Both the position numbers and the translations under genes were made by a program. A stretch of 64,000 bases of DNA from an uncultured Candidatus Binatia bacterium (GTDB taxonomy: Bacteria; Desulfobacterota; Binatia; UBA9968; CAXXLF01), in NCBI GenBank assembly GCA_965218425.1, contig OZ244621.1, forward strand, positions 2,279,369-2,343,368, given 5' to 3'. The notes beneath the pieces were generated by a model. That model searched no databases. It worked only from the letters and a program-made list of their open reading frames with translations, and had not been told where the DNA came from. Shown in pieces: positions 417-62,593 of this stretch; within the stretch, counting starts at the first letter, position 1, and the number at the start of each line of letters is the position of its first letter.

Positions 417-741
417 ACAAAACAAGACGGGCCGCACGTCTATACTTGACGCGTCGTCAAGCATTTCTATGTTTTATCAATATCTTCCATCTCTTCAAAG
501 GAACTCGTTTTGCAGGAAAACAAGCTAATATGCTGAAAATGCCTTTGAATGCCTTTTTCTTAGCTATACTAATCTACTTGTTCTTCTAATTGTTCTTACT
601 GATTCAATGATCCGGGTAAATCTGCGGTTAAGGCTCTTTACGCCTTTAGTGTCTCGGCGCGAAAAACTTTGTGGACCGGTGTTGTTGAGGATTCCATGGG
701 TTAAGATCCAACAGGTCAGGGGAGCAGTGAATTTTTCCGGT

Positions 742-1785
742 TTATTTCTTGGCAGTGAAGATCAGGGTCTTCGGGTAATGGTCCACCCAACCGAACCAGA
801 AGGAGGGGGTGACAGGTACGGCCTCCAACCTTTGACCTTTCATTTGACCCTGAACGGCCTTTCCCGTTAGCCCATTCCACACGGAGCCGGTTGTGTCGTC
901 GGTAAGAAAGGTGCCTTTGTAGTTTTCCGGCTGCGTCTTCTTGAATGTAAGAACCCGGTCTTTCACCTGGCGTTTAAACACCATCCCCGTCGCGCTGTCC
1001 TTTTCGAAGACCGCAAGAATTGGGATCCCTTGGAATACGTCATTGACCACCGGCTGCTTGCTCAGGACGGAATAGGGGTAAGCCTTCGCTTTTCCATCGA
1101 TCACTAATCCAAGTACGTATTCTTTGGGATAGACCCTCTTATCAGACAAGCGAGTGGGAATAATCCCCGTGTCTGCGGAACTATAGTATGATTCGTAAGG
1201 GTCCCGTCCCAAGCTGAGGGGAAAAGGCCGTCCACTGGTTAAAACCTTGGAGTCCGGGTAGAGTCCCATCCAGGTCCCCCAACGAGTAAACGTGGATTCC
1301 ATGGGTTTGAGCTTGTTCCCGTCCATTGGGCCTTTGACCGCCGCTCCCACCAGGTGGCTCCAGAGGCTGTCCGTTTGGTGGTCGTACATTATCAGAGAAT
1401 TGGCATGGAGTTTCCCTGAGACCCCAAAGGTCAACTCCTTGTCTGCGATTCTACGGTCATACACGATGGCCGTATAACAGAGGGGTCACCAGGTGACCGC
1501 GATGGGTATGCCGCCAACTTTGTCGTTGACGATTTCAACCCGGCTCAGTGTGGCTACGGGGTAGGCGCGACTGTCCCCATTGATTTCCACACCGATGACG
1601 GATTCGTCCGCCTTGAGCCATTGGGCACTTTTGCCGTCCTGGAACTCGGGGGAGAGGATGGCCGCAATGGCATCCTTGGCCAGGACGGTAATAATCTCAT
1701 TCGGACGAAGGTCTGCCGCATGAGAATGATTTGGCAGGAATAGTAAGACCAACAGGATCAGCCATAGGGGAAGACAGTATTTCAA
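742..1785 (-). CDS. DUF3179-family secreted protein with in-frame TGA (candidate selenocysteine, W-U-P-L-C; alternatively a pseudogene)
   Basis: Two adjacent minus-strand ORFs (1486..1908 and 742..1464) are in the SAME frame separated only by TGA at 1483-1485 (...IAVTW-TGA-PLCYTAIVYDRR...). N-terminus has a signal peptide from a TTG start at 1785 (MKYCLPLWLILLVLLFLPNHSHA). An ATG at 1908 is an alternative start. Confidence 0.55.
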
Positions 1786-1798
1786 TGGGCCCTCTTGT

Positions 1799-2644
1799 TT
1801 AGCTCTGGATAGGTTTGGAAGCGGACCGGGCGAGGTGCAGGAGCTCCTGGATGGGTCTCTTGGAAACCAGAAGGCAGATTCGTTCTCCCATGCGGTGCAT
1901 GACCCCATTTATCCCATCGTTGGAGAAAGTATAAAAACTGACCTTTCTCTCCGGATCAAAGAGCCTGCGGGCTTGTGGTGGAGCGTCTTGTTCCGTGCCG
2001 AGAAAGGTAAAACAACTGACAGAAGGACCGGTGCCCTCGTACACGGCAATGAGGATATCGCGATTGCCGACTTCTTTGACCGTGCCGCCGACGGCCTTTA
2101 ATCCCGCGGAGGATAGATCATAACCCATTGGCGCGAATTTGCCCTCCATGGCCTGGTGCAATTGGTTTTTAATTGCTGATGGGCTTTCGGCTCGGACAAA
2201 GGAAAGGTCGCCTGAAGCAATCTGTGCATGCGCCTCTATGGCTGCCAGAGGCATAGGCTGACCGGTCGGCCAGGTCAGGTAAAATAAAGGGACGAGCAGT
2301 AAAATCAGTGCGGCCGATGCAAAGGCGGGGCGGGTGATGAAATTGGGTGTCCGGGAGAACCCTTTACAACCTTGGGTTGGTTCGGTGGCCTGAGGTGAGA
2401 TATGGTGATCCGCGAGGATCTTTGCTCTGAGATCGGAGGGGGCGGACACTTTGGCGCCGATGGAAAAGAGCTGTTTTTTGAGCTCCTTTTCCTGCTCAAA
2501 TACGGTTTGACAGTTCACGCAATTTTTTAGATGGCTCTCTATGGCCTGTCGCTCGAGGTCATTTAGTTCGCTATCCGCTAGAGCGGTTATAAGCTCCTCG
2601 GCCTCTTTACAAGTCATTTCCGTTACTTTCCTTCCTCCATGCAC
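1799..2644 (-). CDS. anti-sigma factor (zinc-finger HxxxCxxC N-terminal domain, one TM segment, periplasmic C-terminal domain)
   Basis: N-terminal ...MTCKEAEELITALADSELNDLERQAIESHLKNCVNCQ (putative zinc-finger anti-sigma motif), central hydrophobic segment. Likely true start at the internal Met near 2617. Confidence 0.6.
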   Translation of the reverse strand: MHGGRKVTEMTCKEAEELITALADSELNDLERQAIESHLKNCVNCQTVFEQEKELKKQLFSIGAKVSAPSDLRAKILADHHISPQATEPTQGCKGFSRTPNFITRPAFASAALILLLVPLFYLTWPTGQPMPLAAIEAHAQIASGDLSFVRAESPSAIKNQLHQAMEGKFAPMGYDLSSAGLKAVGGTVKEVGNRDILIAVYEGTGPSVSCFTFLGTEQDAPPQARRLFDPERKVSFYTFSNDGINGVMHRMGERICLLVSKRPIQELLHLARSASKPIQS

Positions 2645-6273: not shown

Positions 6274-6275
6274 CC

Positions 6276-6345
6276 GCCGCTTTGCGCTGATGGTAAAACG
6301 CAAAGCGCATGGCGCTATACGCAAAGCGTCTTTTCAGTGACGGGT
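6276..6345 (+). terminator. hairpin-rich putative terminator / repeat element downstream of arsS
   Basis: CCGCTTTGCGC...GCGCAAAGCG inverted repeats (two nested stem-loops) followed by TCTTTTC. Confidence 0.4.
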
Positions 6346-6652
6346 TACGAGTACCGAGTGGAAATTGAGGGTGGGTCAAGGGTGTAGTGAAGTCCGCACT
6401 GTCAACCCTCCACTCCCTAACCTGACCCTTAAACACTTTCCACCGGCTACACCGTTTTCTGCTTACTGCGATCTTCATACGGTTTTCTTTGGCGTCTTGG
6501 CGCGAAAAACTCTTTTGAATTCGTTCTTTTAAAGAATTGATGGGTAGAATTCTAACGGCAAGGCGGGGCCGTGCAGGTCAGGCAGTGAGATTGAGGCGCC
6601 TAGACCCGGCCCCCCACAGGACCCGCAATTCGTTTGGGTTTTGCTCAGCTAG

Positions 6653-6847
6653 ATGGTAAATTACCCCATGGCTGATACATTCCTAAAGCGCAAGAAGGAG
6701 CAGGATCGGCAGAAAAAAAAGAGGGAAAAAGAGGCCATGCGACAGGACCGTAAAGCGGAAAAAGCGAATCGTAGGCCCCTGACTCCAGGCGAAGACCCTG
6801 ACATCGCGGGGATCAAGCCCGGCCCTCAACCGCCGATCGACTGGTAA
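6653..6847 (+). CDS. small highly basic hypothetical protein (64 aa, Lys/Arg/Glu-rich)
   Basis: ORF only; composition resembles small nucleic-acid-binding proteins; no recognisable family. Confidence 0.25.
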   Translation: MVNYPMADTFLKRKKEQDRQKKKREKEAMRQDRKAEKANRRPLTPGEDPDIAGIKPGPQPPIDW

Positions 6848-7012
6848 TCCGCCCCTTCACGAGCAACCTGACGTCCTTCCGCATTCACCCCTTGGACCAG
6901 AGGCCAAGTGCCGTCCTCTTTCAGCCTTATGAAAGACTTTTGCATGTCTCCGAACCCGGCGTTCTTTACCGCTCTCTGCCGGCAATCGTTGATCCGAATC
7001 GCTAAACGCGAA

Positions 7013-8317
7013 TCAGGCGCTATCCTCTGCTTTACTCTGCTTCCGATCCGACTCCAGTGACGCCAGCGCCTCCTTTACCAGCTTGCGCCGTAATTCTTTC
7101 TCTTCCTCGCCCGTCAGGTTTGCCGCGCCGGTGACGTGGACTATGCCGTTGCCCAAAACGACGCGGTTGGAACCGACCATCTTTGCAATGGGCATGGCCG
7201 AGGTAATCTGGACCACCGGGATGCCCGCCTTTTCCAGCTCGGTTGATATCGCAGCTCCGCTGCGAGTGCTCGTTCCTCAGGTGGAGGTGAGGATGACGGC
7301 GTCGACCTCCTCCCGCTTCACTTTTTCGGCCATCTCCCTGCCCAGGCGCCGCGTGTTCGAGAGCGGGTTCGATAGACCAGATGTGGAGATGAACTCGTGG
7401 TGGAGTTTTCCGATCCTGCCGCTTCTTTCCATCTCGCGCATGGCGTCGAGGGGCACGAGACGGTCCGGATCCTGTTGAACGAATCTCGGATCATAGCCGC
7501 CGTGAGAGATCTCGTAGTCCTCCCCCCTGAGATCATCCCGGCCGTCGATGCTATAGGAGCCCCACCGGGTGGCGGCTTGTCCTTCGATTTTGTCCGGGTT
7601 GCCCTTCGGAACGAGGCCGCCGTCGGTGATGAGCATGACCTTGGCCTTCGAAAGATCCCCCACGGCGGAGGGCATGGGAACCGGTTTAAAGGAAGTCGGC
7701 AACATCTCAGACTCGAAGGGCTCTCCTTTCACTTTCGTCAGGAGCATATCAACGAGCCGGACGGCGGCCGTCCGATCCGCCAGTTGATCGCGCAGGATAC
7801 CCCGGGAAAGGTAGCCTTCCTCTGCGGGCAGCCCGATGGACTTACCGTGGACGAGCTTTCCTCCCAGACGCGCCATTTTGGTTAGGACTTGCCGCATCTT
7901 GGCGGGGCTCGCACCCGAATTCACGATATAGAGCGCTTCCCGGTTGAGATCCGCCCCCGGGTTCTCGCTGCCCATCCCGGTAACGACGGGAATCCCCAGG
8001 TTGGACTGAACGGCGGCGCAGAGGGACCCCGCCGCCATCCCATATCGACCCGCTTCGAAGCAAGGACCGGCAACGAACAGCTCTGCACCCGCCTCCCGGA
8101 CCTTTGCCAGCACCGCGGCCGTCAACTCCTCCTGGTGTTCCACGGCATGGTTGTCTCCGGAAATGAGGGTCATAACCACACGTGAGCCATCGCCCAGCAG
8201 TTGTTCCAACAGCCTCCCCGGTCCTACGGCCCCCTCACGCGCCTCAAGGGGCATGCCCGCCTGCTCCTCTCCCCCGACTCCGCCGAAAAACTGATTCAAA
8301 TAGTGTACGATTCGCAT
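7013..8317 (-). CDS. grdB: glycine/sarcosine/betaine reductase component B selenoprotein (GrdB family) with in-frame Sec codon
   Basis: N-terminus MRIVHYLNQFFGGVGGEE...GPCFEAGRYG...GIPVVTGM matches GrdB. ORF 7277..8317 ends in TGA (7277-7279) in context EEVDAVILTST-U-GTSTRSGA, and the 67-aa ORF 7013..7216 is its in-frame continuation (...IPVVQITSAMPIA...EEEKELRRKLVKEAL). Confidence 0.85.
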
Positions 8318-8350
8318 TTTTTGACCCTCCTCACCGGATTCGCGACTGGA

Positions 8351-9631
8351 TCAAGTGACCAAAGCCCGCATTCTCGAGGCTCCCTGTTGATTGGTGACGC
8401 CGGCAACGTTCGCAGCGGCGACCTTCGTCGGTCCGGCCAACACCCTCCTCAACTCCGGGGTCGCGGCGATGATCCGATCCACCGGTGCCAACGTGTAATT
8501 CGTTCCGTTTCCGCCGTTGTATACGATGGCATTCACCTCCGGAAAGTTGAAGAGCAGAGCCGACTCGACCCGCCTGTCCCTTGCCATGTCCGAGACCATG
8601 ACAGTGGTTTTTATGCCCATACCTTCCAGGAGCCGAGCGGTCTCCGCCAAGTCGGCATGGGGAACACCGCCGCCGTACTTGGTTAGAATGACGGCGTCCG
8701 CTTTCAACGCCCACCTGACCAGATTCGCAGCCGTCCGACAGTTTCGGTCGCGGTCGAAGTTGTCGGAACCGGCAACGGTCGCCACCGTGCCCACGAAGTT
8801 GAGATGCCGCGCATGGTGGCGACCGTAGAGCTCCAGGATCACGGGGTGATTTTGATAGAAGTAGGTTTCCGCGCCGCCGATGGAAGAATGGTACGATGGG
8901 ACGACGGCGCCGTCCAGCCACTCGTCGGGATGAAGCGGGATGGGCAGCATCCCTTCCGTGTTGGCGCCATAGAGAATGGGCTCGTCCACGCCGGGCTTTC
9001 GCTGGCGCGAGAAGATCTGGCCTACATATGCGACCCGGGGAAGCCCCTCGCGTCCCGCCTCCGCGGGACCCGCCGGGTCGAATTGACGGGTGGATGCCGC
9101 AGGCTGACTCGCCGCAATGCGGGCCATATGAACCGAGAGCCTGAGACCGGCCCGACGATACGCTTTTCCGATGCTTTGAGCGGGCAACTCCGAACGCGTA
9201 CGGGGAATCGCCACCAGGTGGTGCAACGAGGAGTAATTGCTGCCTTCAGCGGCTGCCCCGCTCATCTCCAATACCCGGCCCGTCACGCCCCTGGACTCTC
9301 CCGGAGACCTCTCCGCCAGAACGGTGACGACGGCTCCTTCGAGCACATGGGTCGTCCCCATGCCCGCCGTTTCCGGCGCACCCAGGATGCCCGGGAAATC
9401 AGGGCTTGAGCCCTCTCCTTTAGCTCTGGGCTCGATGATGTCGAAGACGGGCGCGGCCCGACAACTCTCGCCGGGGCGCACGATTTGGAAATCCACGCCG
9501 GTAAGGGCATCGTCTTCAAGAACCAACCGGCGCAGTTCCTCCGGATCGACGACGAGGACCGAGCCGTCGAGACGGGCCGGTGTTTCCAAGCGGATCTCCG
9601 TGATGGGGTGACATGCCAGGGTCAAACGCAT
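8351..9631 (-). CDS. grdE: glycine reductase component B alpha/beta proprotein (GrdE family)
   Basis: MRLTLACHPITEIRLE...IVRPGESCRAAPVFDIIEPR... matches GrdE N-terminus; ~425 aa; internal N-C pair (DRDRNCR) as possible pyruvoyl-forming self-cleavage site. Confidence 0.75.
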   Translation of the reverse strand: MRLTLACHPITEIRLETPARLDGSVLVVDPEELRRLVLEDDALTGVDFQIVRPGESCRAAPVFDIIEPRAKGEGSSPDFPGILGAPETAGMGTTHVLEGAVVTVLAERSPGESRGVTGRVLEMSGAAAEGSNYSSLHHLVAIPRTRSELPAQSIGKAYRRAGLRLSVHMARIAASQPAASTRQFDPAGPAEAGREGLPRVAYVGQIFSRQRKPGVDEPILYGANTEGMLPIPLHPDEWLDGAVVPSYHSSIGGAETYFYQNHPVILELYGRHHARHLNFVGTVATVAGSDNFDRDRNCRTAANLVRWALKADAVILTKYGGGVPHADLAETARLLEGMGIKTTVMVSDMARDRRVESALLFNFPEVNAIVYNGGNGTNYTLAPVDRIIAATPELRRVLAGPTKVAAANVAGVTNQQGASRMRALVT

Positions 9632-9751
9632 TTTTCTTTCCTCTCGTGAAGACCCGGCAAGGGACCGGGAGTCCTCCAGGAGCGAGCGCAATCTCAGACC
9701 GGCTACTGCTCTGCTTATACCTCAAAGCAAGCTTGCCGCCAAGGGTTCAGC

Positions 9752-10219
9752 TTATCCGTCGGCGAGCCCGGAGCGAACCTCCCGCATCGCCGTGGCGATA
9801 GCCTCGGTTTCCACTGCCATCTCGATCAGGCCCACCTCGTCGGCGTAGGTCTCGGGGTCCACCTGCTCCTTGATCTCGGGCTCGGTGATGTGGAAGACGG
9901 GGAGTTTCAAGCCGACGCCGCCGAGCGCTCCCGCCCAGGTCGGATCCCCATCGGTCATGGTCAGGCCGAACAGTTTGCTGCTCTCTGCGGTGGGAGTTCC
10001 GAGAAGGACAACGACACCGGCAGTCCCCGTGGCGTCTACCTTCCGTTTGATTTCTTCTTGACCTTCCAGGTCAAGCGCGCCCGACGCCGTTCAGACGAAA
10101 CAGTGGGTGAGTTCAAGGATGACTTCGGCGCCCGCGCTTTTCGCGCAAAGAGCGATGGAGTTGCCTTGAACGCCGTCTCTTTCTCCCAGAACAATGACTT
10201 TCTTCCCGTTCAGCTTCAT
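9752..10219 (-). CDS. grdA: glycine reductase selenoprotein A (GrdA) with in-frame Sec codon
   Basis: ATG at 10219 with GGGGG RBS. Translation MKLNGKKVIVLGERDGVQGNSIALCAKSAGAEVILELTHCFV-U-TASGALDLEGQEE... closely matches GrdA (…TECFVUTAAGAMDLE…). TGA at 10091-10093; 155 codons. Confidence 0.9.
10057..10075 (-). promoter_or_regulatory. hairpin 3' of the grdA Sec-TGA (candidate SECIS)
   Basis: CUUGACC-UGGAA-GGUCAAG perfect 7-bp stem, 16 nt downstream of UGA on the mRNA. Confidence 0.5.
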
Positions 10220-10335
10220 AACGCCCCCGTCATTCATATCGAGCCGAGACTACGACCTCGCCAAGCCGGAACATCTAGCAGAGGACAGTAGGCGGCAAGA
10301 AATCAACCTCTTGACCTTACTTTTCTTAAATTTAG

Positions 10336-10394
10336 CTTTGACCGCCGCATACCGCTTACTGCGAACTGCTTACTGGTTTCGCTTTGCGCGAGTC
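10336..10394 (+). repeat. 58-bp GC-rich intergenic repeat, copy A (between grdC and grdA)
   Basis: GCCGCATACCGCTTACTGCGAACTGCTTACTGGTTTCGCTTTGCGCGAGTCATC; ~93% identical to the reverse complement of 62384-62445. Confidence 0.8.
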
Positions 10395-10402
10395 ATCCCC
10401 GG

Positions 10403-11854
10403 TTAGTTTTTCGGGTTACGCTCCAATACAAAGGATAATCCGTCCGCCATCTGAGTCATGCGGCCTAAAAACAGGCTCCCTTTGGCCAAGAACATGGCTC
10501 GATCCATAGCCCCCGACACGATACGGTCCACTGCGTGCCCCAGGAAAGGGATCGCCGAGGCGATATGGCCCTGAGTCGGGGCATAACCGGGCATTCCGTG
10601 TGTTTCCGCAAAACTTGAAATCTCGTTAGGGGCGATCTCTTTGTTCCGCGCCGCCAGGGCGGCGATAAGCCTGTAGTTCGTCAACGGAACGTTGCCGTTT
10701 CCGGACGGTTCCGTCACCTCCGGGTTGTGCAGCTCGGTGGCGTACTTGTCGATATCCCCGAAGCGCAATTTTAGTTTCTGCAGCGGCTCGGCCACCAGTG
10801 AGCCGAAGACGGCCTGCTGGCTCGAGCCGGCACCCACCCGGTGCATACCGACGGAATCCAGCCTTAGCCAAGGATGTTTCCCGTCGTCCCCGGAGACGTG
10901 GATGGCAACTCCCGCCAAAACATCCTCCAAGACCGGTTGTTCGTGTTTGAGATGGCCTTGAAACTTCATCCCGAGTTTCGCCAGAGAGCCGCCCCCGACG
11001 ACCACCACATTGCGGAACACACCCGCGCTCACGAGGCTGCCGGCCAGCAGCAAAGCATGGTTCGGACCCGAGCAAAAGCCTTTGACGTCGACCCCGCTCG
11101 CCATGGAGCACCCGCACATTTCCCCGATGGCCTTCGCCAGGTTTCCTCCGCCGCGCTGGTAACGGTCGCCCACCGCCTCCTCGCCGCTGTTTAGAACATA
11201 ATCAATGGCAGCGGCCTGTGCGCCTTCACCCTTCAGGAGCGTCTTCAGGGCCACTACCGCCGTCGCCTTGCAGGCCAGGTTCTCGAGGAGAATGTCGGGC
11301 GCAAGGGAGCGGTCCTCCCGATCGCCCGGCAGGACGCAGCCCACCAATTGCCCGTCCCGCAGATTGAGGGGGAGCGCGGGCGACGGACCGTCGATCCGAG
11401 CCTCGATGGCGGAGAGCGGCTTGCCGTCGTTGAGGTTCGCGGCTTCCACCTTCCCGAAGAGCGGATGGAGTTCCAACGCCCGCCGCGCCGTCCCGAGAAA
11501 ACCTTCCTCGAGCCAAAGCAGCCCGAAGAGATCGCAGAGCTTCATGACGGCGTAAAACTCCTCTTCCGGCATGAATTCACCATGCCGTTGCCGCCGTTCC
11601 GTATCCTGTCTCACGGCAAACCAGGGCCGTTGGAGGGATTTCAGTTCATCGGGGTAGATGGATCCTAGAAATACCCGGTTCGGCGGATAGGACAAAGCGT
11701 CCTCGAAGGAACGGAGCCGCTCCCGAATTCGTTCGCTTACCGCCGCTTCCCGGACGATTTCACGCGCCGGTTTCGAGCCGTGGGTGACAAGTCCGGGCGT
11801 ATGAGATAAAAAGTAGCGAACGGCCTTGATGACTGGTTGATTTCCCGGGGGCAT
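10403..11854 (-). CDS. grdC: glycine reductase complex component C-like protein (GrdC-like, beta-ketoacyl-synthase-like fold)
   Basis: 483 aa; size and context (immediately upstream of grdA-grdE-grdB) fit GrdC. Assignment GrdC versus GrdD is from size only. Confidence 0.5.
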   Translation of the reverse strand: MPPGNQPVIKAVRYFLSHTPGLVTHGSKPAREIVREAAVSERIRERLRSFEDALSYPPNRVFLGSIYPDELKSLQRPWFAVRQDTERRQRHGEFMPEEEFYAVMKLCDLFGLLWLEEGFLGTARRALELHPLFGKVEAANLNDGKPLSAIEARIDGPSPALPLNLRDGQLVGCVLPGDREDRSLAPDILLENLACKATAVVALKTLLKGEGAQAAAIDYVLNSGEEAVGDRYQRGGGNLAKAIGEMCGCSMASGVDVKGFCSGPNHALLLAGSLVSAGVFRNVVVVGGGSLAKLGMKFQGHLKHEQPVLEDVLAGVAIHVSGDDGKHPWLRLDSVGMHRVGAGSSQQAVFGSLVAEPLQKLKLRFGDIDKYATELHNPEVTEPSGNGNVPLTNYRLIAALAARNKEIAPNEISSFAETHGMPGYAPTQGHIASAIPFLGHAVDRIVSGAMDRAMFLAKGSLFLGRMTQMADGLSFVLERNPKN

Positions 11855-17636: not shown

Positions 17637-20633
17637 TCAGGCCTCGGGCCGTTCGTACGTCAGACCGAACACCGTGTCCGTCATCCAACGCCGAAAAGAC
17701 TCGTTGTCCATGAACTGCTTGAAAAGCTCGGTGTCGTCCTTGAGCACGGCCGTCATCACGCGCGCCAATGCCTTATCGTGCTCGATACGGGCGTTCTGCT
17801 TGTCGGAGTTCCGCTTCGCGTTCCGGTAGGCCGTGTCCGCCGCGACGCGATTCGGGATGTCCTCGGTGATCAGCCTGTGCACCCGGTCCGAGTCGGTCCA
17901 CCGGATATTCCCGAACATCTCGTTGAAGGTCTTGAGGATGTTCGAGAGGCGGTCGAGTTCGGGTTCAGGTTTACGGCCGCCGCCGCCGGCCGGCACCGGC
18001 CCGATCTCGGCTTCCTCGTCCGGCAGTCGGACCTGCATCGCCGCCTTCTTCTCGACCCGGTAGCTGTCCATGTCGATGGACTCAAGGATGCCTCTGGACA
18101 GATCCTCTTCCACGGGCGCGGGGAGCTTCGGCACGAGGAAGTTCAGGAAGATGGAGAGCCTCTCCCACTCGGCGTTCGTGTAGGGCAGGATAGCGGCGAG
18201 GAAGTCGTACGCGCGCCCGAACGCCTTGGCCTTGCCCTTGAAGTCCACCTGCCCGTCCTCGTCGAGCTGCTCCCTGTAATGCGCAACGCAGGCGTCGAGG
18301 ATGGGGTCGAGCCGGTCGCGGTCGGCCCCACCGAGGTAGAGCGTCACGAGCCGGTCGATCTCCGCGTCGGCATAGACCTGGTAGCCGTCGAGGGCGGCCT
18401 TGAGGTCGTGCAGCTTGTTGGGATCGGTCTCCTCGCTCAGGATCGTCGTCCGGTAGTAGTCGGCGAACGCCGCTTGGATGGTGTTGGCATCGTTCATGAA
18501 GTCGAGGACGAACACGTCGTGTTTCTGCGGGTGCGCCCGGTTGAGACGCGACAGCGTCTGGACCGCCTTGATCCCGGACAGGACCTTGTCCACGTACATC
18601 GTGTGCAACAGCGGCTCGTCGTACCCGGTCTGGAACTTGTCGGCGCAAATGAGGAACCGATACGGGTCCTGCCGGATCTCGTCGGCGATCCGCCCGGGCG
18701 GGAAGCCGTTGAGGGACGCCTCACTGACCTTACCCCCGCCATACTCGTGCTCGCCCGAGAAGGCCACGATGGCCTGATACGGGCTCCTGCGCTCCAGGAG
18801 GTACTGCCGGATCGCGTGGTAATACTGGACCGCGCGCTCGATGCCGCCCGTCACCACCATCGCGCGGGCCTTGCCGCCGATCTTGTGGAGCGCCAGCACC
18901 TGTTCGTGGAAGTGGTCCACCATGATCTCGGCCTTGAGCCGGACGGCATGGTCGTGGCTCTCGACGTAGCGGCGCAGCTTCTTGCGGGCGCGCTTGGTGT
19001 CGAACTCGGGATCACCCTCGATCTTCTTGACGAGCTTGTAGTAGCTCTCGACCGGCGTGTAGCGCCCGAGCACGTCCAGGATGAAGCCCTCCTGGATCGC
19101 CTGCTTCATGGTGTAGCCGTGGAACGGTCGGCGCCTGGTCTTCCCGCCCGCGTCGTACGCTTCGCCGAAGGTCTCCAGCGTCTTGTTCTTGGGCGTGGCG
19201 GTGAAGGCGAAGTAGCTCGCGTTCGTGAGGAGCTTCCGCGCGTCCATGATGCGGTTGATCATGTCCTCGGCGGTCTCGTCCTCCTCCTCGGCGCCCGCCT
19301 CGGAGAGCGCCATGTTGAGCGCTGCCGAGGTCCTGCCGCCCTGGCTGGAATGCGCCTCGTCGATGATGATGGCGAAGCGCCGGCCCCGCTGCTCGTTCCC
19401 GATCTCTTCGAGGATGAACGGGAACTTCTGCACCGTCGAGATGATGATCTTCTTGCCGCTCTCGATAAACGCGCGGAGGTCGCCCGAGCGTTCGGCGTGA
19501 CCGACGGTGGCCCCGACCTGGGCGAACTGCTTGACCGTGTCGCGGATCTGCTTGTCGAGGATGCGCCGGTCGGTTACCACGATGATGGAGTCGAACGCCT
19601 CCGCGCCGTCTTTCCTGAGCCCGATCAACTGGTGGGCGAGCCAGGCGATGGAGTTGGACTTCCCGCTGCCGGCCGAGTGCTCGATGAGATACCGTTTCCC
19701 TGCGTCGTGCCGGCCGACGTCCGCCAAGAGGTTCCGCACCACGTCGAGCTGGTGGTAGCGCGGCCAGATCTGCACCGCACTCCTCTTGCCCGTCTTCTCA
19801 TCCTTGGCCTCGACGACCTGCGCATAGTTCTCCAGGATGTCGGTCAGCCCGTTGCGGGTAAGCAGGCGCTTCCAGAGGTAGTCGGTCTTGAGGCCGTTCG
19901 GGTTGGGCGGATTGCCCGCGCCGTCGTTCCAGCCCAGGTTGAAGGGCAGGAACCACGAACCCTTGCCCTTGAGGTGCGTGCAGAACCGCACCTCGTGGTC
20001 GTCCACCGCGAAGTGCGCCACGCAGCGGCCAAACTCGAAGAGCTTCTCGCGCGGGTCGCGGTCGCGTTTGTATTGCTGGACGGCGTCCTCGACAGTCTGC
20101 TTGGTGAGGCTGTTCTTCAGCTCGAAGGTGGCTACCGGCAGGCCGTTGATGAACAGGCCCAGGTCGAGAGCGAGCTGCGTCTCGTCGCGGCTGTAGCGGA
20201 GCTGGCGCGTGACCGAGAAGCGGTTCTGGGCGTAGCGTTCAGCGGCGAGGGGGTTGCCGGGAGACGGCGCGCCGTAGAAGAGTTCGGCGTGATGCGGCCC
20301 GTCCTTGACCCCCTTGCGGAGCACGTCGATGACGCCGCGCTTGCCGACCTCGCCTTGAAGACGCGCCAGGAACTTGCGCCGCGTCGGGCCGTCCTCTTCC
20401 AGGGCGAGCACCTCGGACGCCTTCGGTTGCGTCTCCCGCAGGAACTCCGAGAGCTGGACCAGGTCCACGCAATACTCCCGGTCGTAGTCGTTCGGGTTGC
20501 CGCAGATCCAGCCGGCGCCATAGGCGGCCGGACGCTCGCGCACCACGCCCGCTTGCGCCGGATCGCAGGGGGCTCCCGTCAGAGCCGCGCAGATGAGGCT
20601 TTCAAGTCCCTTCTCGCCGGTGTCGGTGGTCAC
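17637..20633 (-). CDS. hsdR: type I restriction-modification system endonuclease subunit R (HsdR)
   Basis: 998 aa; N-terminal endonuclease region, helicase motif I (HSAGSGKSNSIAW), DEAH box (IIDEAHSSQ), motif VI region; full length for the family. Confidence 0.9.
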   Translation of the reverse strand: MTTDTGEKGLESLICAALTGAPCDPAQAGVVRERPAAYGAGWICGNPNDYDREYCVDLVQLSEFLRETQPKASEVLALEEDGPTRRKFLARLQGEVGKRGVIDVLRKGVKDGPHHAELFYGAPSPGNPLAAERYAQNRFSVTRQLRYSRDETQLALDLGLFINGLPVATFELKNSLTKQTVEDAVQQYKRDRDPREKLFEFGRCVAHFAVDDHEVRFCTHLKGKGSWFLPFNLGWNDGAGNPPNPNGLKTDYLWKRLLTRNGLTDILENYAQVVEAKDEKTGKRSAVQIWPRYHQLDVVRNLLADVGRHDAGKRYLIEHSAGSGKSNSIAWLAHQLIGLRKDGAEAFDSIIVVTDRRILDKQIRDTVKQFAQVGATVGHAERSGDLRAFIESGKKIIISTVQKFPFILEEIGNEQRGRRFAIIIDEAHSSQGGRTSAALNMALSEAGAEEEDETAEDMINRIMDARKLLTNASYFAFTATPKNKTLETFGEAYDAGGKTRRRPFHGYTMKQAIQEGFILDVLGRYTPVESYYKLVKKIEGDPEFDTKRARKKLRRYVESHDHAVRLKAEIMVDHFHEQVLALHKIGGKARAMVVTGGIERAVQYYHAIRQYLLERRSPYQAIVAFSGEHEYGGGKVSEASLNGFPPGRIADEIRQDPYRFLICADKFQTGYDEPLLHTMYVDKVLSGIKAVQTLSRLNRAHPQKHDVFVLDFMNDANTIQAAFADYYRTTILSEETDPNKLHDLKAALDGYQVYADAEIDRLVTLYLGGADRDRLDPILDACVAHYREQLDEDGQVDFKGKAKAFGRAYDFLAAILPYTNAEWERLSIFLNFLVPKLPAPVEEDLSRGILESIDMDSYRVEKKAAMQVRLPDEEAEIGPVPAGGGGRKPEPELDRLSNILKTFNEMFGNIRWTDSDRVHRLITEDIPNRVAADTAYRNAKRNSDKQNARIEHDKALARVMTAVLKDDTELFKQFMDNESFRRWMTDTVFGLTYERPEA

Positions 20634-20651
20634 GCTATCCCTCTTCCATCT

Positions 20652-20969
20652 TCAGATCGGGACCTCTCTCAGTTCACCGGGGCGTATTTCGTCAAGGACA
20701 GTGCGATTCTCTTCTATCCGCGGCTGGATATAGGGCCATGCCGTGGACAGCAGGACGACAATCGCCAGTCGCCTATCTGTGAGATTCCGCTGGTATCGCA
20801 TATTCTGGTCAGTGGTGATGAGGACTTCGTAGCCTTCCTGCTCGGCCTCCTCAACCAAGTCTCCATTTCCGAGTCCTGACTATCCTTGCTCCGCTGCCGT
20901 ATCCACCGAGTGTCCGTGCAGATGCCCTCGAAGCGGCTTAGGCGTTCCCTGGTCGAATAGAATCTTCAC
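20652..20969 (-). pseudogene. DUF5615-family (PIN-like, toxin-like) gene with premature in-frame TAG
   Basis: Minus-strand translation from a GTG overlapping the DUF433 stop: (M)KILFDQGTPKPLRGHLHGHSVDTAAEQG-TAG-SGLGNGDLVEEAEQEGYEVLITTDQNMRYQRNLTDRRLAIVVL... matches DUF5615. The TAG at 20880-20882 falls where family members carry a conserved Trp (TGG). The supplied ORF track lists the distal part as '+', but the + strand there encodes only the antisense read-through of hsdR. Confidence 0.65.
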
Positions 20970-21193
20970 GGTTCTACGGAAACTTTGAGGGACTTTGCCG
21001 CGTGTTCGAGAACGGCTCTGACCTTCCATTCCTCCACGCCCTCGAACCAATCCAGGAACTGTTCTATCGTGGCGCCGCTCTCAAGGTTCTCGAAGAGGGC
21101 AGATACGGGCACTCTGGTTCCGGTGAACACCCAGGCTCCACTAAGCCTGCCGGGTACGCTTTCGACTGCCGGGCACTTTCCCCAGTCCGTCAT
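20966..21193 (-). CDS. DUF433-family protein (antitoxin-like partner of DUF5615)
   Basis: MTDWGKCPAVESVPGRLSGAWVFTGTRVPVSALFENLESGATIEQFLDWFEGV is a typical DUF433 sequence; the gene is immediately upstream of, and translationally coupled to, the DUF5615 gene. Confidence 0.75.
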   Translation of the reverse strand: MTDWGKCPAVESVPGRLSGAWVFTGTRVPVSALFENLESGATIEQFLDWFEGVEEWKVRAVLEHAAKSLKVSVEP

Positions 21194-21996
21194 ACCGTCA
21201 CCTCGGCAGGAGGGTGTAGGTTTCTATCTACACGGTCTGTCAATGGGCCGTCTTCCTCTGACGAGTCCTGCTCGTCCGCCTCATCGGGCAACCGTGCCGC
21301 CGCTTCGCGAACGTCGAGCTTGCCGGTGACCACGTCGGCGATGAGGCGGGTGCGGTACTCGCGGAGGAGGTTGATTTGGTGCTGGGCGCGGTCAATAGCA
21401 ACGTCGATAATGGCGGCAGCTTTGTCGAGATACGTAACGATGGCGGCTTGTTCGGGGAGGGGGGGTAAAGCAAGGATGAGAGCTTTGACCATGCCCGAGT
21501 TAAGCCCGCGCATGATCGAACCCTTCCCCGCAACCGCGATCTGCTTCTTCACATAGGTGGACTCGTCAATAAGCCGCGAGGCGAATCTGACATTGATGCT
21601 AACGTCAGTTCGCAATCGAAGGAGATGCGAATCCATGATACCCATGGGGGCATCGTCAGGAACATAGGTACACCTTCCGGTTGTTCCCATCATCGTCACC
21701 AACAGATCATTTGGGAGCACTTTGCAAGCGGATAGTTCGTTGAATTTCTCTTGGTCGACGAATTTCGTGCCGCGATCAAAGTCCCTGGCAATGACGTTGG
21801 CCTGGCCGTACACTTTGTAACCCGATGGTGACATCTGTTCGAGCTTCAGTTGGCTGCCGAAAGGGCCGATCTTAATCCCGTCATAAGTGCGGAGCTTTCG
21901 GCGAAGTGCGTCAACCTCCCAATGCACTGGAACCTCGCCCAGCCATGGCACGCCAGAGTCCTTCATCGCGGGGTAGGGCTTGAGATCGGCGATCAT
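21190..21996 (-). CDS. hsdS: type I R-M specificity subunit HsdS, half-size (single target-recognition domain plus conserved C-terminal coiled-coil)
   Basis: N-terminal conserved MKDSGVPWLGEVPVHWEV, one TRD, C-terminal LLREYRTRLIADVVTGKLDVREAAARLP. ~268 aa (full-size HsdS ~400-470). Confidence 0.7.
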   Translation of the reverse strand: MIADLKPYPAMKDSGVPWLGEVPVHWEVDALRRKLRTYDGIKIGPFGSQLKLEQMSPSGYKVYGQANVIARDFDRGTKFVDQEKFNELSACKVLPNDLLVTMMGTTGRCTYVPDDAPMGIMDSHLLRLRTDVSINVRFASRLIDESTYVKKQIAVAGKGSIMRGLNSGMVKALILALPPLPEQAAIVTYLDKAAAIIDVAIDRAQHQINLLREYRTRLIADVVTGKLDVREAAARLPDEADEQDSSEEDGPLTDRVDRNLHPPAEVTV

Positions 21997-22127
21997 GCTT
22001 CAGCCTCTCTGTTACCCATTTGCTTTTCGAAGGCTTGGCGCACGAGGCCCATCACGTAAGGCGGTTCGTCCGGCGTGCTCAAGACTACCTCCACGTCGCC
22101 GTTTCCACTGTGACCGATTCCCGTCAT
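21993..22127 (-). CDS. small hypothetical ORF (44 aa) overlapping the hsdS start (ATGA)
   Basis: MTGIGHSGNGDVEVVLSTPDEPPYVMGLVRQAFEKQMGNREAEA; coupling geometry only; could be a remnant of the upstream truncated gene. Confidence 0.2.
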   Translation of the reverse strand: MTGIGHSGNGDVEVVLSTPDEPPYVMGLVRQAFEKQMGNREAEA

Positions 22128-22321
22128 ATCCCGAGCCTGACCCCTGGGACTGGTTGCATTTCATTGCGCCTGCATCGCGCTGCGTAGGCATTGAAGTTCT
22201 CCGGAAAAGCGCGTTTGAACTGAAGCGCAATTCCGCGCCCCATGACCCCGACGCAGTTGACGGTATTGACCAGAGCTTCGGCTTCTTCGGCGAGGATGTC
22301 GCCGGTCTTGTATTCGATCAT
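22124..22321 (-). pseudogene. darG: DarG-like macrodomain (ADP-ribosyl glycohydrolase antitoxin) N-terminal fragment
   Basis: MIEYKTGDILAEEAEALVNTVNCVGVMGRGIALQFKRAFPENFNAYAARCRRNEM matches the N-terminal macrodomain of DarG antitoxins. ORF stops after 65 aa (full length ~340 aa); no DarT toxin gene nearby. Confidence 0.6.
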
Positions 22322-22454
22322 GGCCTTTCCCCTTCCTCGTCAGTAATACCACTCTTTCTTGATTTCAACAGGAGATCGTTCTCGGGAATGATAGAAGGCA
22401 GACGGTCTACATGGACGATGTGGTAGATCTTGGGATCGGCGGGTACCGGCATGG

Positions 22455-22891
22455 TCAGTACTCGGCATCCGACAGTTCGACATCTTGGTCAATGGGTTCG
22501 CGCCATTCCTCAAACTCATCGACTGGCTCCGGTCCCTCGACCTCGTCCGGGAGTCTTGCCGCCGCCTCGCGCACATCGAGCTTGCCGGTGACAATATCGG
22601 CGATGAGTCGGGTGCGGTATTCGCGGAGAAGGGCAAGTTCGCCGTGCGAGAGGTCAATAGCACGCCGTGCGTCTGCCGACTCTTTGCCGACGACCTCGAC
22701 GATAGTGCGCTGCTCCTCCTGTGGCGGACACAGCAACTTGATACGAAGGAACTCCTCCGGGTACATCCTCAGTCGTGACGAGCGGATACCCGTTGACCGG
22801 CGGATGTACTCGCTCTTATATGACGCCGTACGCAGCAGGAGATCAGCGTACTCGGCAAGCAGTCTCGAAGAGCGGTGTGGTTGGTAGACAG
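22455..22891 (-). pseudogene. hsdS: hsdS C-terminal portion, separated from its N-terminal portion by an IS3-family insertion
   Basis: Translation from the IS boundary reads ...YQPHRSSRLLAEYADLLL...LLREYRTRLIADIVTGKLDVREAAARLPDE (HsdS TRD2 plus C-terminal repeat). Joining 24160.. to ..22887 restores a continuous reading ...GIVSPSYAV-YQPHRS... Confidence 0.8.
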
Positions 22892-24159
22892 TGACCTTGC
22901 CCCCTAAAACGAGTCCAGGTGAAATGTTAGGGATTTTGATTTTAGGAAGGAGGCAAGGATGGCAAGAAAGCGATTTACGGCCGAGCAGATTATCCTCAAG
23001 CTGCGTGAGGCGGAGGTGAGCTTGGCCCAAGGGAAGGCGGTGGGCCAGGTGTGCAAGCAGGTGGGGGTAACCGTGCAGACCTACTACCGGTGGAGGAAGG
23101 AATATGGAGGCCTGAAGATGGATCAGGCCAAGAGGCTCAAGGCCTTGGACAAGGAGAATGCGCGGTTGAAGAAGCTGGTGGCGGATCTATCGCTGGACAA
23201 CCAGATCCTGAAGGAAGTGTCCTCGGGAAACTTCTAGGCCCGGCGAAGAGGAGACGAGCGGTGATATGGGCCAGAGAAAGATTGGGACCTGATCGAGTCT
23301 CCGAACGCCGGGCTTGCCAAGTGTTGGGACAGCCGCGATCGACGCAACGAAGAGTCCGAGAGATCCCGGAAGAGGAAGCAAGACTAGTGGCTCGGATGAT
23401 GGAGCTGGCCAGCGAATACGGGCGATACGGCTACCGGAGGATTACGGCCATGCTGCGTGGGGAGGGGTGGAAGGTCAACCACAAGCGAGTGGAGAGGCTC
23501 TGGAGGCAGGAAGGGCTGAAAGTCCTCAGCCGTCAGCCTAAGCGAGGGAGGCTCCGGTTGACTGATGGCTCCTGCATTCGCCTGAGACCGGCGCATCGAA
23601 ACCATGTGTGGAGTTATGACTTCGTGCACGAGCGAACCGAAGACGGTCGGGCCTTTCGGCTGTTGAGCATCCTGGATGAATACACCCGGGAGTGCTTGGC
23701 GATTGATGTGGCCAGACGGATGAATCACCGGGATGTGCTGGAACGGTTAGCGGAGCTATTCGTGGAACGGGGCGTGCCGCAGTCCCTTCGGTCCGACAAT
23801 GGCCCCGAGTTTACGGCTCAGGCTATCCGGGACTGGCTCAAGGCCATTGGTGTCAGGACACTCTACATCGAGCCTGGCAGTCCTTGGGAGAATGGCTACG
23901 TGGAGAGTTTTAACGGAAAACTCAGGGATGAGCTGCTCAACCGGGAGGTGTTTGAAACCCTGAGGGAAGCTCAGGTGCTGATCGAAAGATGGAGAAGAGA
24001 GTATAACCAGCGGCGGCCTCACAGCGCCCTGGGCTATCGTTCTCCGGCACCGGAGGCCTTTCTGCCCAGAGCGCAGGCTGGGAATTCATCCCCATGGGCT
24101 GGACTCCAGATAATTCCGGCTCTAACTTAAAGGGTGGTACCACTCCTGGGGGCAGGTCA
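22892..24159 (+). mobile_element. IS3-family insertion sequence (orfA HTH plus orfB DDE integrase), 1268 bp, imperfect terminal IRs TGACCTTGCCCCC / GGGGGCAGGTCA, 4-bp target-site duplication ACAG
   Basis: orfA 22959..23237 ([20 protein letters not shown]...[18 protein letters not shown]); overlapping orfB 23051..24130 in the -1 frame with the DDE core (…[10 protein letters not shown]…DNGPEFT…[20 protein letters not shown]…). TSD ACAG at 22888-22891 and 24160-24163. Confidence 0.85.
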
Positions 24160-25154
24160 ACAGCATACGAGGGGCTGACTATTCCAGTCTGCCTAGCAAC
24201 GCCCAGAGCGCCCATCCAAGCCCACATCGTATTGATGACCAGATCGCCGGGCCTACACAACTTGTGCCCGACGTTCGACACCGCCATAAACATCGTGATG
24301 TTCTTCTCACTTCGCGGCGTTACTCCGGTAATGTGAGACACGGACAGCAATTCCTCTGAGCCGGTCTCAGAGCGCTCATCCGTTTCCCGGAAGCACCATT
24401 TCGCTGGCCTTATTTCCCAATGCGCCGGCACCTTTCCCAGCCACTCAACGCCGGAGTCCTTGTAGGCCGGGTAGGGCTGGCCGGTGCAGATGTCCACTTG
24501 GCCCGTGACGGCGCGGTGGATGATGGCCTGCTTCTGCTCCTCCAGCAACTTGATCAGCTTCTGCTTGGCGCGGATGTAGCGCCGGATGCGCCGGTCGGCG
24601 TGGTCGAGGAAGCGGACGATGGCAGCCTGTTCGGGGAGGGGGGGGATAACTGTTCTAATCTCTCGGATTTCACTTTCACTAATAGCGGGTACTGGCCCTG
24701 GTTTCGCAATTGTTGCTAAATCAAGGTGCTCCAGCAGCAACAAGACGAACTGCGGGTTGCCACGACGGACGATGCAGCCCATCAGATTGTTGTCTATACA
24801 GCATGGACGCTCGACCACTCGCCTCTTGTTGGTCAATAGTGCCCCGCCAACTTTAGGGAACACGATTGTTCTAGACGGGAAAATGTTTGCGCCAAGTCTT
24901 GATGCGGTACTACGAGCAACGGAGTTATTCCAACTCCCCATCACTCTGTCGTTATTGGGAAGGTTCATATCGGAGACTTTGAAAAACGGCAGTTCCAGGT
25001 TCTGTTGGCCTTGTTCCAAAATTGGAAATCCAGCTCCGCTACTGAAATGCCCTAACCGCTTCAAGGCTATCACTTCCCAATGCGACGGCACATCACCGAG
25101 CCACTCGACACCGGAGGGCTTGTAGGCGGGGTGAGAGTGGATTCTGGCAGTCAT
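24160..25154 (-). pseudogene. hsdS: hsdS N-terminal portion (TRD1 plus central conserved region plus start of TRD2), interrupted by the IS3 element
   Basis: MTARIHSHPAYKPSGVEWLGDVPSHWEV...PLPEQAAIVRFLD...KQKLIKLLEEQKQAIIHRAVTGQVD...YKDSGVEWLGKVPAHWEI...GIVSPSYAV then runs into IS sequence. Confidence 0.8.
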
Positions 25155-27743: not shown

Positions 27744-27745
27744 GA

Positions 27746-28741: not shown

Positions 28742-28743
28742 GG

Positions 28744-53774: not shown

Positions 53775-53959
53775 AGGGGAAAGACCGCGAAGAGTTTTAA
53801 CGCAGATTTACGCGGATACTTGAATAGCAAAGAGCAGAGCACTCAGAGAAGTGAGCAATAAGCAGTGTTCTCCCGTGGCTCAGTACTCTTTTCTCAGTAC
53901 TAAATGGCGTCTTTGCGCGAGGTATCTTTTTTCCGAGTCCGGAATCCAAACCCCCAGTT

Positions 53960-54649: not shown

Positions 54650-54695
54650 CATAATAATGCCTATTCCAATAACAAACTTTTTCGCGCCAAGACAC

Positions 54696-54800
54696 CAAGC
54701 TCGCAAAGATAAGAATCTAGCTCTTGTTTCCGAACCTGGCGTTCTTTGCGCCTTTGCGCGAGTTGTCTTTATCCGAATCCCTTTAACTGATGCCCAATAT
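54696..54800. repeat. ~100-bp intergenic repeat (family 2), copy between moaC and radC
   Basis: TTCGCGCCAAGACACCAAGCTCGCAAAGA...CGCCTTTGCGCGAGTTGTCTTTATCCGAATCCC; homologous to 56306-56420 and partially to 53905-53945, 6481-6520, 641-670. Confidence 0.7.
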
Positions 54801-56292: not shown

Positions 56293-56305
56293 TCACGTCA
56301 ACAAA

Positions 56306-56420
56306 GATTAAAAATTCTCGCGCCAGGACGCCAAGCTCGCAAAGAAGAGATGTTTTCTCGCTGAGGGACTTAGCGCCCTTTGCACAAGCCATCCCATTCC
56401 GGATCCCTTAATCCAGAATT
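56306..56420. repeat. ~100-bp intergenic repeat (family 2), copy downstream of trxB
   Basis: TCTCGCGCCAGGACGCCAAGCTCGCAAAGAAG...CGCCCTTTGCACAAGCCATCCCATTCCGGATCCC. Confidence 0.7.
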
Positions 56421-62250: not shown

Positions 62251-62383
62251 GGCTCATCCCTATCATATTTCGAAAGCCCAGCCAAAGTTTGAAGAACTAT
62301 TAACCGTAGATATTCGCAGACTGGGAAACGGCAAGATGCATAGTGCAAAACGCAGGAAGTGGATTGCTGAATCGGGATGAAGA

Positions 62384-62445
62384 TGTCTCGCGCAAAGCGA
62401 AACCAGTGGGCAGTTCGCAGTGAGCGGTATGCGGTAGTCAAGGTT
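62384..62445 (-). repeat. 58-bp GC-rich intergenic repeat, copy B (inverted; between ocd and MFS transporter)
   Basis: Reverse complement CCGCATACCGCTCACTGCGAACTGCCCACTGGTTTCGCTTTGCGCGAGACATC. Confidence 0.8.
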
Positions 62446-62593
62446 GAATTCAAGAAAGGCAAGGTGGAGGGACTGATTTCTTGCTGCTTGCTGCCTCCCG
62501 CTCGCTGTTCTCGCTTTGCGAACTTACCCCCCTATTGAACCGGTTCCTTTTGTCGTATAGTCTTTCATCCAAAACGAATGCCCCTAGCCGGCA

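Follow-up and report, generated by a model that had tools for sequence, protein, structure and literature searches.

Two copies of an intergenic element that we call family 1 lie in a 64,000-nt stretch of the genome of an uncultured Candidatus Binatia bacterium (contig OZ244621.1, positions 2,279,369 to 2,343,368; hereafter the window), copy A between the glycine reductase genes grdC and grdA, and copy B between ocd and a transporter gene. [quoted passage not shown] This reading, whose REP/MITE-like version was among the options in a preliminary description of the DNA, is drawn from the inverted ends, the long stem-loop, the lack of coding capacity, the existence of filled, empty and replaced sites, divergence at a neutral rate and the lack of any link to gene function. 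Family 1 is a new repeat family within the ordinary class of small palindromic or mobile repeats. By its distribution among the sequences compared, it appears specific to a small clade of uncultured, probably Binatia-like soil bacteria, and its outer arms seem to belong to a wider superfamily of octamer-repeat palindromes, CTCGCG(CAAAGRCG)n ... (YCTTKGCG)nCGAG.

A Nested Palindrome Present in Two Copies

A repeat search of the window recovered the two copies as an inverted, ungapped pair of 140 nt (10258-10397 on the minus strand, 62382-62521 on the plus strand), identical at 111 of 140 positions (79%), with an E value of 1e-29 to 1e-30 in local BLASTN and an alignment with which MAFFT agrees. 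Similarity is concentrated at one end: the 5' 55-60 nt, read toward the downstream gene, are 90-91% identical between the copies (50/55, or 91%, in the core at 10338-10392; 90% over 60 nt), while the remainder is 65-75% identical. The 58-bp pair of the preliminary description is real and far beyond chance, but its identity is 90-91% instead of the 93% given there, and it is merely the 5' half of the 140-nt element. What had been listed as a separate shorter relative at 62470-62530 turned out to be the 3' arm of copy B, partly complementary to its own 5' arm.

The copies each fold as a long imperfect hairpin in which one part is nested in another: short outer arms (CTCGCGCAAAGCG ... CGCTTTGCG) and an inner palindrome of ~110 nt that occupies the apical loop of the outer hairpin and has a G-rich 5' arm of tandem CAGTRAGC-type units and a C/T-rich 3' arm (Table 1). 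As in MITEs, the ends are terminal inverted repeats and the element has no transposase gene, the ends being CTCGCGCAAAGCG ... CGCTTTGCG in copy B and CTCGCGCAAAGCG ... GGCTTGGCGAG in copy A. The only coding content of the 140 nt consists of spurious antisense open reading frames (ORFs), and those noted earlier for their common peptide (...AYRLLRTAYWFRFAR / ...AYRSLRTAHWFRFAR) are indeed present at 10194-10406 and 62244-62462. A coding role for the shared peptide was considered and rejected, the ORF being antisense to the operon and its conservation simply tracking that of the DNA. For annotation, the element explains these false ORFs as well as others in relatives, for example at 11424-11669 of locus L058.

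Folded singly, the family-1 copies form one hairpin of -43 to -54 kcal/mol, and in an RNAalifold consensus built from four distinct copies, four helices contribute 38 pairs and 93% of cells are paired; sliding the partners by 1-3 columns lowers this figure to 28-57%. Compensatory change on both sides occurs at 3/38 pairs, too few among four sequences for significance, and the observed covariation score was reached by 8 of 500 column shuffles. The covariance analysis proposed in the preliminary description thus bore out the conservation of stem pairing in the four copies, with covariation too sparse to be significant. In a manual tally of the pairing tables, G.U occupies 28 of 152 stem cells on the strand pointing to the downstream gene and A.C occupies 4 (A.C on the sense strand being G.U on the opposite one); such an excess of G.U on the sense strand agrees with the G-rich 5' arm being the better conserved of the two.

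Filled, Empty and Replaced Sites in Related Genomes

Orthologous loci were obtained from related metagenomic genomes via homologues of GrdC and of the transporter, and across five such genomes the element is variously present, absent or replaced. The grdC/grdA spacer holds family 1 in L052 and in L058-L062, in both cases with a GrdC 90% identical to that of the window. In L055 (GrdC 88%) the 5' edge (GATGACTCTCGCAAAGG) and the 3' edge are as in family-1 sites and enclose a family-2 interior, homologous over its full length to the moaC/radC hairpin of the window (54668-54775). The spacer is 31 nt long, with no element, in L056 (GrdC 87%), and L057 (79%) and L053 (77%) also have no element. Because the window, L058 and L052 fall together in the GrdC comparison and L055 pairs with L056, family 1 at this site is confined to one small clade. 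At the ocd/transporter spacer, family 1 is found in the window only: L063 and L065 keep the flanks and the outer arms around an interior that is a 36-nt plain loop, and L066 has a third kind of hairpin. Among relatives, orthologous positions thus occur filled and empty, as MITE sites do. The repeats also have the make-up of a mosaic of the BIME/BOX type, since one site may have the same outer arms with different interiors and modules recur in varying combinations from spacer to spacer.

The orthologous copies are conserved to about the same degree as neighboring silent sites. Copy A and the L058 copy are 73.8% identical over the element, with 73.4% identity at four-fold sites of grdC; the corresponding values are 69.2 and 76.4% for copy A and L052, and 80.8 and 74.5% for L058 and L052. 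On these values, orthologous copies appear to diverge at about the synonymous-site rate, with no detectable constraint on primary sequence. The identity of copy B is 78.6% with copy A and 81.5% with the L058 copy; being no nearer to copy A than to copies of other genomes, copy B was not recently copied from A, which implies an unseen donor.

We infer at least two arrivals of the inner palindrome in outer hairpins that were already there, one at grdC/grdA in an ancestor of the three lineages and one at ocd/transporter in the source lineage only, the donor of copy B presumably being a copy outside the available sequence. The same outer arms with different interiors at one site suggest either that the palindrome inserted itself in the loop of a hairpin already in place or that interiors were exchanged by recombination between shared outer arms. 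When filled sites were aligned to the 31-nt empty site of L056, no clean junction emerged, L056 being too diverged; a short ATGA lies near both ends at the grd site and not at the 62-kb site. More generally, these modular nested repeats of a poorly known soil lineage are gained, lost and replaced over the time in which species diverge, and they flag hot spots within regions whose synteny is otherwise kept.

The same comparisons bear on the idea that family 1 is a gene-specific cis-regulatory RNA (a riboswitch, attenuator or leader) through which grdA and the transporter would answer to one shared signal. Both copies do point toward the downstream gene, and the long stem is conserved with a few compensatory changes. 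Against this, the association with these genes is lost in close relatives, at 77-88% GrdC identity and 88-91% transporter identity, where both loci either lack the element or have another in its place; no pathway is common to glycine reductase protein A and an Npt1/Npt2 nucleotide-type transporter; and the sequence evolves at a synonymous rate. Nor is there an Rfam match (none for the whole window at the gathering score, and none for either copy at E values up to 10), and, with covariation not significant, the element does not look like a riboswitch or other leader. We therefore rate a gene-specific regulatory RNA as very unlikely, and the regulatory and attenuator options of the preliminary description gain no support, the more so as the expression signals described next lie outside the hairpins. 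The element likewise shows that no conserved regulatory leader occupies the spacer between grdC and grdA.

Gene Context and Expression Signals

The gene context reported earlier, with one copy in the grdC/grdA spacer and the other in the ocd/transporter spacer, was borne out, except that the gene taken for an MFS transporter encodes one of the Npt1/Npt2 (TLC-like) type. Translation of this gene probably begins at ATG 62639, since homologues are 444-445 aa long; the gene call of the contig begins at TTG 62594 (459 aa). The glycine/sarcosine/betaine reductase (grd) cluster (6990-11854; also seen in L053, L057 and L058) has the order grdC-grdA-grdE-grdB with no grdD beside grdC, and a divergent gene for a DUF255 thioredoxin-like protein is conserved in all relatives.

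Scans found no sigma-70-like promoter and no terminator-like site inside either copy, and the lone terminator-like site (62595-62577, minus strand) falls outside copy B. No U-tract follows either hairpin, the downstream sequences being GGCGAGGTCGTAG... and GAACTTACCCCCC..., and the copy A hairpin ends ~38 nt before the grdA ATG, leaving the GGGGG ribosome-binding site free. The element thus has neither the U-tract of an intrinsic terminator nor the occlusion of a ribosome-binding site by which an attenuator could act. Downstream of copy B and outside the repeat, a TTGAAC/TATAGT pair that is conserved in three genomes, with varying sequence upstream of it, is the probable transporter promoter; the promoter scan missed it because its spacer is 15 nt. 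A sigma-54 promoter within the conserved TGATTTCTTGC was considered by eye and rejected: the GG-N10-GC spacing fits copy A and L052 and is one base off in copy B. The window has no tRNA or tmRNA genes. Its histidinol dehydrogenase is nearest to proteins labelled Deltaproteobacteria bacterium (86%) and Candidatus Binatia (73%), which makes a Binatia-like organism probable.

These signals also bear on whether the copies could be a family of independently transcribed small-RNA genes, as their stable structure and intergenic location might suggest. Neither copy has a sigma-70-like promoter or a terminator-like site of its own, copy A sits in an operon spacer that is just 31 nt long in a relative, and divergence at a neutral rate and the missing Rfam match likewise speak against such genes, which we regard as highly improbable.

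For the repeat that we favor, the consequences at the two loci would be modest. Because a relative has just 31 nt between grdC and grdA, copy A must be transcribed with the operon, and in the transcript spanning the two genes it would form a stable stem-loop (-43 kcal/mol). There it would be at most a determinant of processing or stability, as REP, ERIC and Correia elements are, and not a ligand- or gene-specific switch; by this analogy a modest effect of copy A on mRNA processing or stability is plausible, and an effect on polarity of the grd operon is possible. Copy B, upstream of the probable transporter promoter, is probably inert.

Related Modules in the Window and Beyond

Pieces of family 1 and of a second family recur in other intergenic spacers of the window (Table 1). 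The inverted ends of family 2 extend to AAAGATGACTCGCGCAAAG / CTTGGCGCGAGAATCTTT. The module at 53905-53950, an outer 5' arm preceded by a small palindrome, is 79% identical over 38 nt to the sequence immediately upstream of copy B. Downstream of grdB, a family-1-like 3'-arm piece (CTGCTTACTGCG, 6452-6487; 75% over 36 nt, E 0.03) is followed at 6487-6518 by a family-2 3' arm (CTTTGGCGTCTTGGCGCGAA). The preliminary description had taken 6283-6345 and 6440-6480 for shorter relatives of the 58-mer; they are real, but the likeness is at the level of modules and they are not shortened 58-mers. The 9-mer CGCAAAGCG/CGCTTTGCG occurs seven times in 13.5 kb of intergenic DNA versus once in 50.5 kb of coding DNA, and the exact motif CTCKCGCMAAG occurs four times in the window, always in intergenic DNA, and never in ~50 unrelated loci. 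The outer-arm motif, which recurs in the window at 635-675, 6487-6518, 53905-53950, 54668-54775 and 56305-56400, is also present in the 8 kb beyond the window (the extension), and it always lies between unrelated housekeeping genes. From these arrangements, family 1 appears to be a mosaic whose modules (outer arms, inner palindrome, other hairpins) can be separated and are recombined from one site to another.

Some spacers are dense with such sequences. The 716-nt spacer between a DUF3641 radical-SAM gene and grdB (6274-6989) is packed with hairpin modules, and a palindrome with G-rich and C-rich arms at ~6355-6430 is of a further type that recurs at 64,974-65,260 in extended coordinates. Another module, TTAACCGCAGATTT ... 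AGCAAAGNGCAGAGCNCTCAGAGAAGTGAGCAGTAAGCAGT, is found at non-orthologous sites (53796-53870 on the plus strand, 12375-12445 of L063 and 64976-65040 of the extension) and runs into sequence like the inner palindrome. Synteny with the sister species ends just past a conserved GGCTGTAGGCTC block downstream of an aldo-keto reductase gene, beside a repeat-rich spacer (extension ~65,300-65,830 versus L063 12560-12700); a rearrangement breakpoint at the repeats is possible.

Table 1. Coordinates of the repeat modules, their flanking genes and the candidate promoter in the window.
Feature	Position	Strand	Remarks
Family-1 copy A	10257..10397	-	in 183-nt spacer between grdC stop (10403) and grdA start (10219)
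Copy A outer 5' arm, CTCGCGCAAAGCG	10392->10380	-	
Copy A inner palindrome	~10379->10268	-	
Copy A outer 3' arm, GGCTTGGCGAG	10267->10257	-	degenerate
Family-1 copy B	62382..62521	+	between divergent ocd and Npt-type transporter genes
Copy B outer 5' arm, CTCGCGCAAAGCG	62387-62399	+	
Copy B inner palindrome	~62400-62509	+	
Copy B outer 3' arm, CGCTTTGCG	62512-62520	+	
Family-2 hairpin (~95 nt)	54668..54775	-	moaC/radC; arms CTCGCGCAAAGGCGCAAAG ... CTTGGTGTCTTGGCGCGAA, plain loop (GTTCGGAAACAAGAGC...)
Second family-2 hairpin	56305..56400	-	trxB-like gene / peptidase M28 gene, convergent spacer
Outer 5' arm module, AAAGATACCTCGCGCAAAGACGCC	53905..53950	-	preceded by small GGATTCCGGA palindrome; radC / HHH-domain gene
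Fragment modules	6452..6518	+	716-nt convergent spacer downstream of grdB
Hairpin cluster, CGCTTTGCG / CGCAAAGCG / CGCAAAGCG	6278..6328	+	right after radical-SAM gene stop; only a 9-mer in common with family 1
Family-2 3'-arm fragment, GTGTCTCGGCGCGAAAAACTTTG	635..675	+	isolated
grdC-like gene	11854->10403	-	
grdA	from 10219	-	in-frame UGA at codon 43
Gly_reductase component-B subunit gene (grdE-like)	9691->8351	-	
grdB	8317->7277, then past UGA	-	UGA follows codon 346
ocd	61165-62250	-	
Candidate sigma-70-like promoter, TTGAAC, 15-nt spacer, TATAGT	62535..62561	+	conserved in three genomes, upstream sequence varying

Copy Number and the Case Against a Dispersed Repeat

Several observations weigh against the reading of family 1 as a dispersed repeat. 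The 72 kb of source sequence (the window plus the extension) yielded two full copies, and ~42 kb of the sister species one full copy and one weak relative. Exact-word scans with two 18-mers across 185,579 species genomes and the metagenomes of the Joint Genome Institute (JGI) found no other copy, although exact 18-mers are possibly too strict for copies at 75-80% identity, and a search of the spurious ORF against 1.84 billion representative proteins added one locus only, P0372. Pfam searches of 50 of the 51 called ORFs of the window revealed no transposase and no REP-associated tyrosine transposase (RAYT), and no target-site duplication could be defined. Fold energies of the sense and antisense strands are mixed, with no consistent strand preferred and the antisense equal or better for some copies, and the retention of pairing with a sense-strand G.U bias could mean selection for function instead of selfish persistence.

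The weak relative in the sister species (L063 12411-12528, E 3e-4) resembles the inner palindrome and has no outer arms, and no further full copy emerged when 228 kb from the source and the sister were searched with profile and covariance models. The 18-mer matches, 34 loci in GTDB species genomes (GCGCAAAGCGAAACCAGT) and 16 in JGI metagenomes (CAGTTCGCAGTRAGCGGT), include none with extended similarity and are due to chance. P0372 is a spurious ORF with an element-derived core peptide between unrelated flanks, which by its sequence would mark one further family-1 locus in some genome. No transposase or RAYT is among the Pfam marks recorded for genes of the extension, and no RAYT is among those recorded for the loci of relatives. 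The GenBank phage and plasmid sets gave no BLASTN match to the element; of two scans of viral contigs for the inner palindrome, one found nothing and the other a chance match inside a capsid gene. Full-text literature searches for Binatia repeats and for the octamer strings yielded nothing relevant.

Taken at face value, two full copies in 72 kb and public exact-word scans that found no others might mean that the copies are alike by accident, or stem from a single local duplication and belong to no family. Such an origin is extremely improbable given the E value of the pair (~1e-30), homologous copies in at least two other genomes (L052, L058), the third type of locus (P0372), and a copy B that is missing at the orthologous site of relatives and is not derived from copy A.

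Outer-Arm Motif in Phages and a Possible Host Signal

The outer-arm motif CTCGCG(CAAAGRCG)n was found by two scans of viral collections in 20 IMG/VR phage contigs (loci L069-L088) of 44-68% GC. The phage arms are tandem octamers, 5' CTCGCG(CAAAGRCG)n and 3' (YCTTKGCG)nCGAG, that pair with periodic single mismatches, and copies are either full hairpins or single arms, with other nested palindromes held in the hairpins of L075 and L076. Examples lie at 906-985 and 2757-2845 of L069, 10816-10865 of L085 and 1725-1840 of L075, and L085 contains ~48 nt that are nearly identical to the 54.7-kb module of the window. Genes for tail tube, capsid, terminase and tape-measure proteins and their like are present in the contigs that were checked. 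Rfam contains no family for the motif. In 7 of the 11 arm-only copies with a downstream ORF, that ORF begins 40-54 nt after the start of the motif, and the ORFs identified after such copies encode terminase, major head-protease, major tail and late-activator proteins. The shared motif could link these phages to their hosts.

This distribution raises the question of whether the hairpin (or, failing that, the outer arms) serves the host as a functional signal and is not a selfish repeat. It would be an intercistronic RNA module, for instance an RNase processing site, a 5' stabilizer or a binding site for a host factor that boosts the next gene or uncouples it from the operon and has been adopted by phages. 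Copy A lies directly upstream of grdA, whose product is made in large amounts in studied glycine reducers. In phages, the motif is located just 5' of the genes for the terminase large subunit, major head-protease, major tail, tail tube and late activator, and it is common to genomes of widely differing GC content (the 44-68% given above). Within the family-1 stems, pairing is kept despite neutral-rate drift, with a G.U bias toward the sense strand, and the arms retain periodic 1x1 mismatches. However, phages have little non-coding space, so that any intergenic element adjoins a start codon; arm-only copies are unable to form a hairpin; and the test of hairpin orientation against phage genes, by arm type, gave a signal too weak to use. 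In bacteria, convergent spacers contain copies too, a further copy lies upstream of a promoter, one is antisense to its neighbors (L058 18514-18587), and close relatives lack the element at the same site. On balance we regard a host signal as unlikely, although two facts, the strand-biased retention of pairing and the position of the motif beside key late genes of phages, leave room for a functional outer module.

In its more specific form, the proposal is that the octamer module, by itself or within a hairpin, gives this uncultured lineage and its phages a functional signal not described before, which we consider decidedly unlikely. Were it true, the module would be an RNA or single-stranded-DNA element recognized by a host factor that sets mRNA processing, stability or translation; the signal would closely precede strongly expressed or operon-leading genes, namely grdA and the phage genes for terminase, major head, major tail and tail tube, and family 1 would be a lineage-specific elaboration of a new expression signal. 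None of these implications touches a question that has long stood open.

Other Features of the Region

A type I restriction-modification island occupies 17637-30804, where third-position GC is ~0.9 in hsdR and two hsdM ORFs versus 0.6-0.7 in most genes. It comprises hsdR (17637-20633, minus strand), hsdS-like ORFs at 21190-21996 and 23937-25154 (minus strand), a pair of genes for an AAA ATPase and an S8 peptidase, and an hsdM split into 28744-29499 and 29548-30804. The hsdS-like ORFs share internal repeats (21266-21400 with 22528-22662; 21916 with 24414 and 25074), which may reflect shuffling of the specificity subunit. Elsewhere, a DUF3179 gene at 742-1908 is split into ORFs 742-1464 and 1486-1908 (minus strand), and is either a frameshifted pseudogene or an indel error of the 8x long-read assembly. 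An ORF for a HepT-like ribonuclease (38047-38463, minus strand) adjoins a small partner ORF (37571-38044, minus strand), and by this arrangement the two are a probable toxin-antitoxin pair.

Comparison With Known Repeat Families

Bacterial MITEs, such as ERIC/IRU of enterobacteria, Correia/NEMIS of Neisseria and Nezha of cyanobacteria, are 100-200 nt long, have no ORF, carry inverted ends, form a stem-loop and leave filled and empty sites (PMC3184786). Family 1 resembles them in its size, its lack of an ORF, its inverted ends and its long stem-loop, as well as in its occurrence in intergenic and intra-operon spacers, its filled and empty sites and its possible co-transcription with neighboring genes. 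It differs from them in being nested in another palindrome and in having arms of short tandem units, and no target-site duplication could be shown for its copies, for which no parent insertion sequence with matching ends (CTCGCGCAAAG) is known.

REP elements and REPINs are mobilized by RAYT transposases (PMC3116915, PMC3337134), and REP arms are self-palindromes of 20-40 nt with a GTAG or CGTC head (PMC3733652). Like a REPIN, family 1 has two inverted arms and a spacer that make one hairpin, its arms are imperfect and strand-asymmetric, it passes on mostly by vertical descent and turns over slowly, and copies lie between genes, convergent pairs included. Its arms, however, are not self-palindromic REPs and consist of tandem direct units (CCAGTAAGCAG..CGCAGTAAGCGG), and its ends read CTCGCG with no GTAG/CGTC head, GTAG being present only in the loop region, where it is not conserved. 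REPINs typically come in hundreds of copies; for family 1, two full copies and no RAYT gene were found in the 72 kb of source sequence.

Mosaic repeats include the BIMEs of E. coli, the pneumococcal BOX elements (boxA-boxB-boxC) and the Chunjie-type nested repeats of Geobacter. Family 1 has no sequence similarity to these, and we know of no octamer periodicity of the arms, nor of arms shared with phages, in the BIME, BOX or Chunjie families. What it has in common with them is its architecture: separable modules in varying combinations (outer arms, inner hairpins, the GGATTCCGGA palindrome and the TTAACCGCAGATTT block) and one palindrome nested within another.

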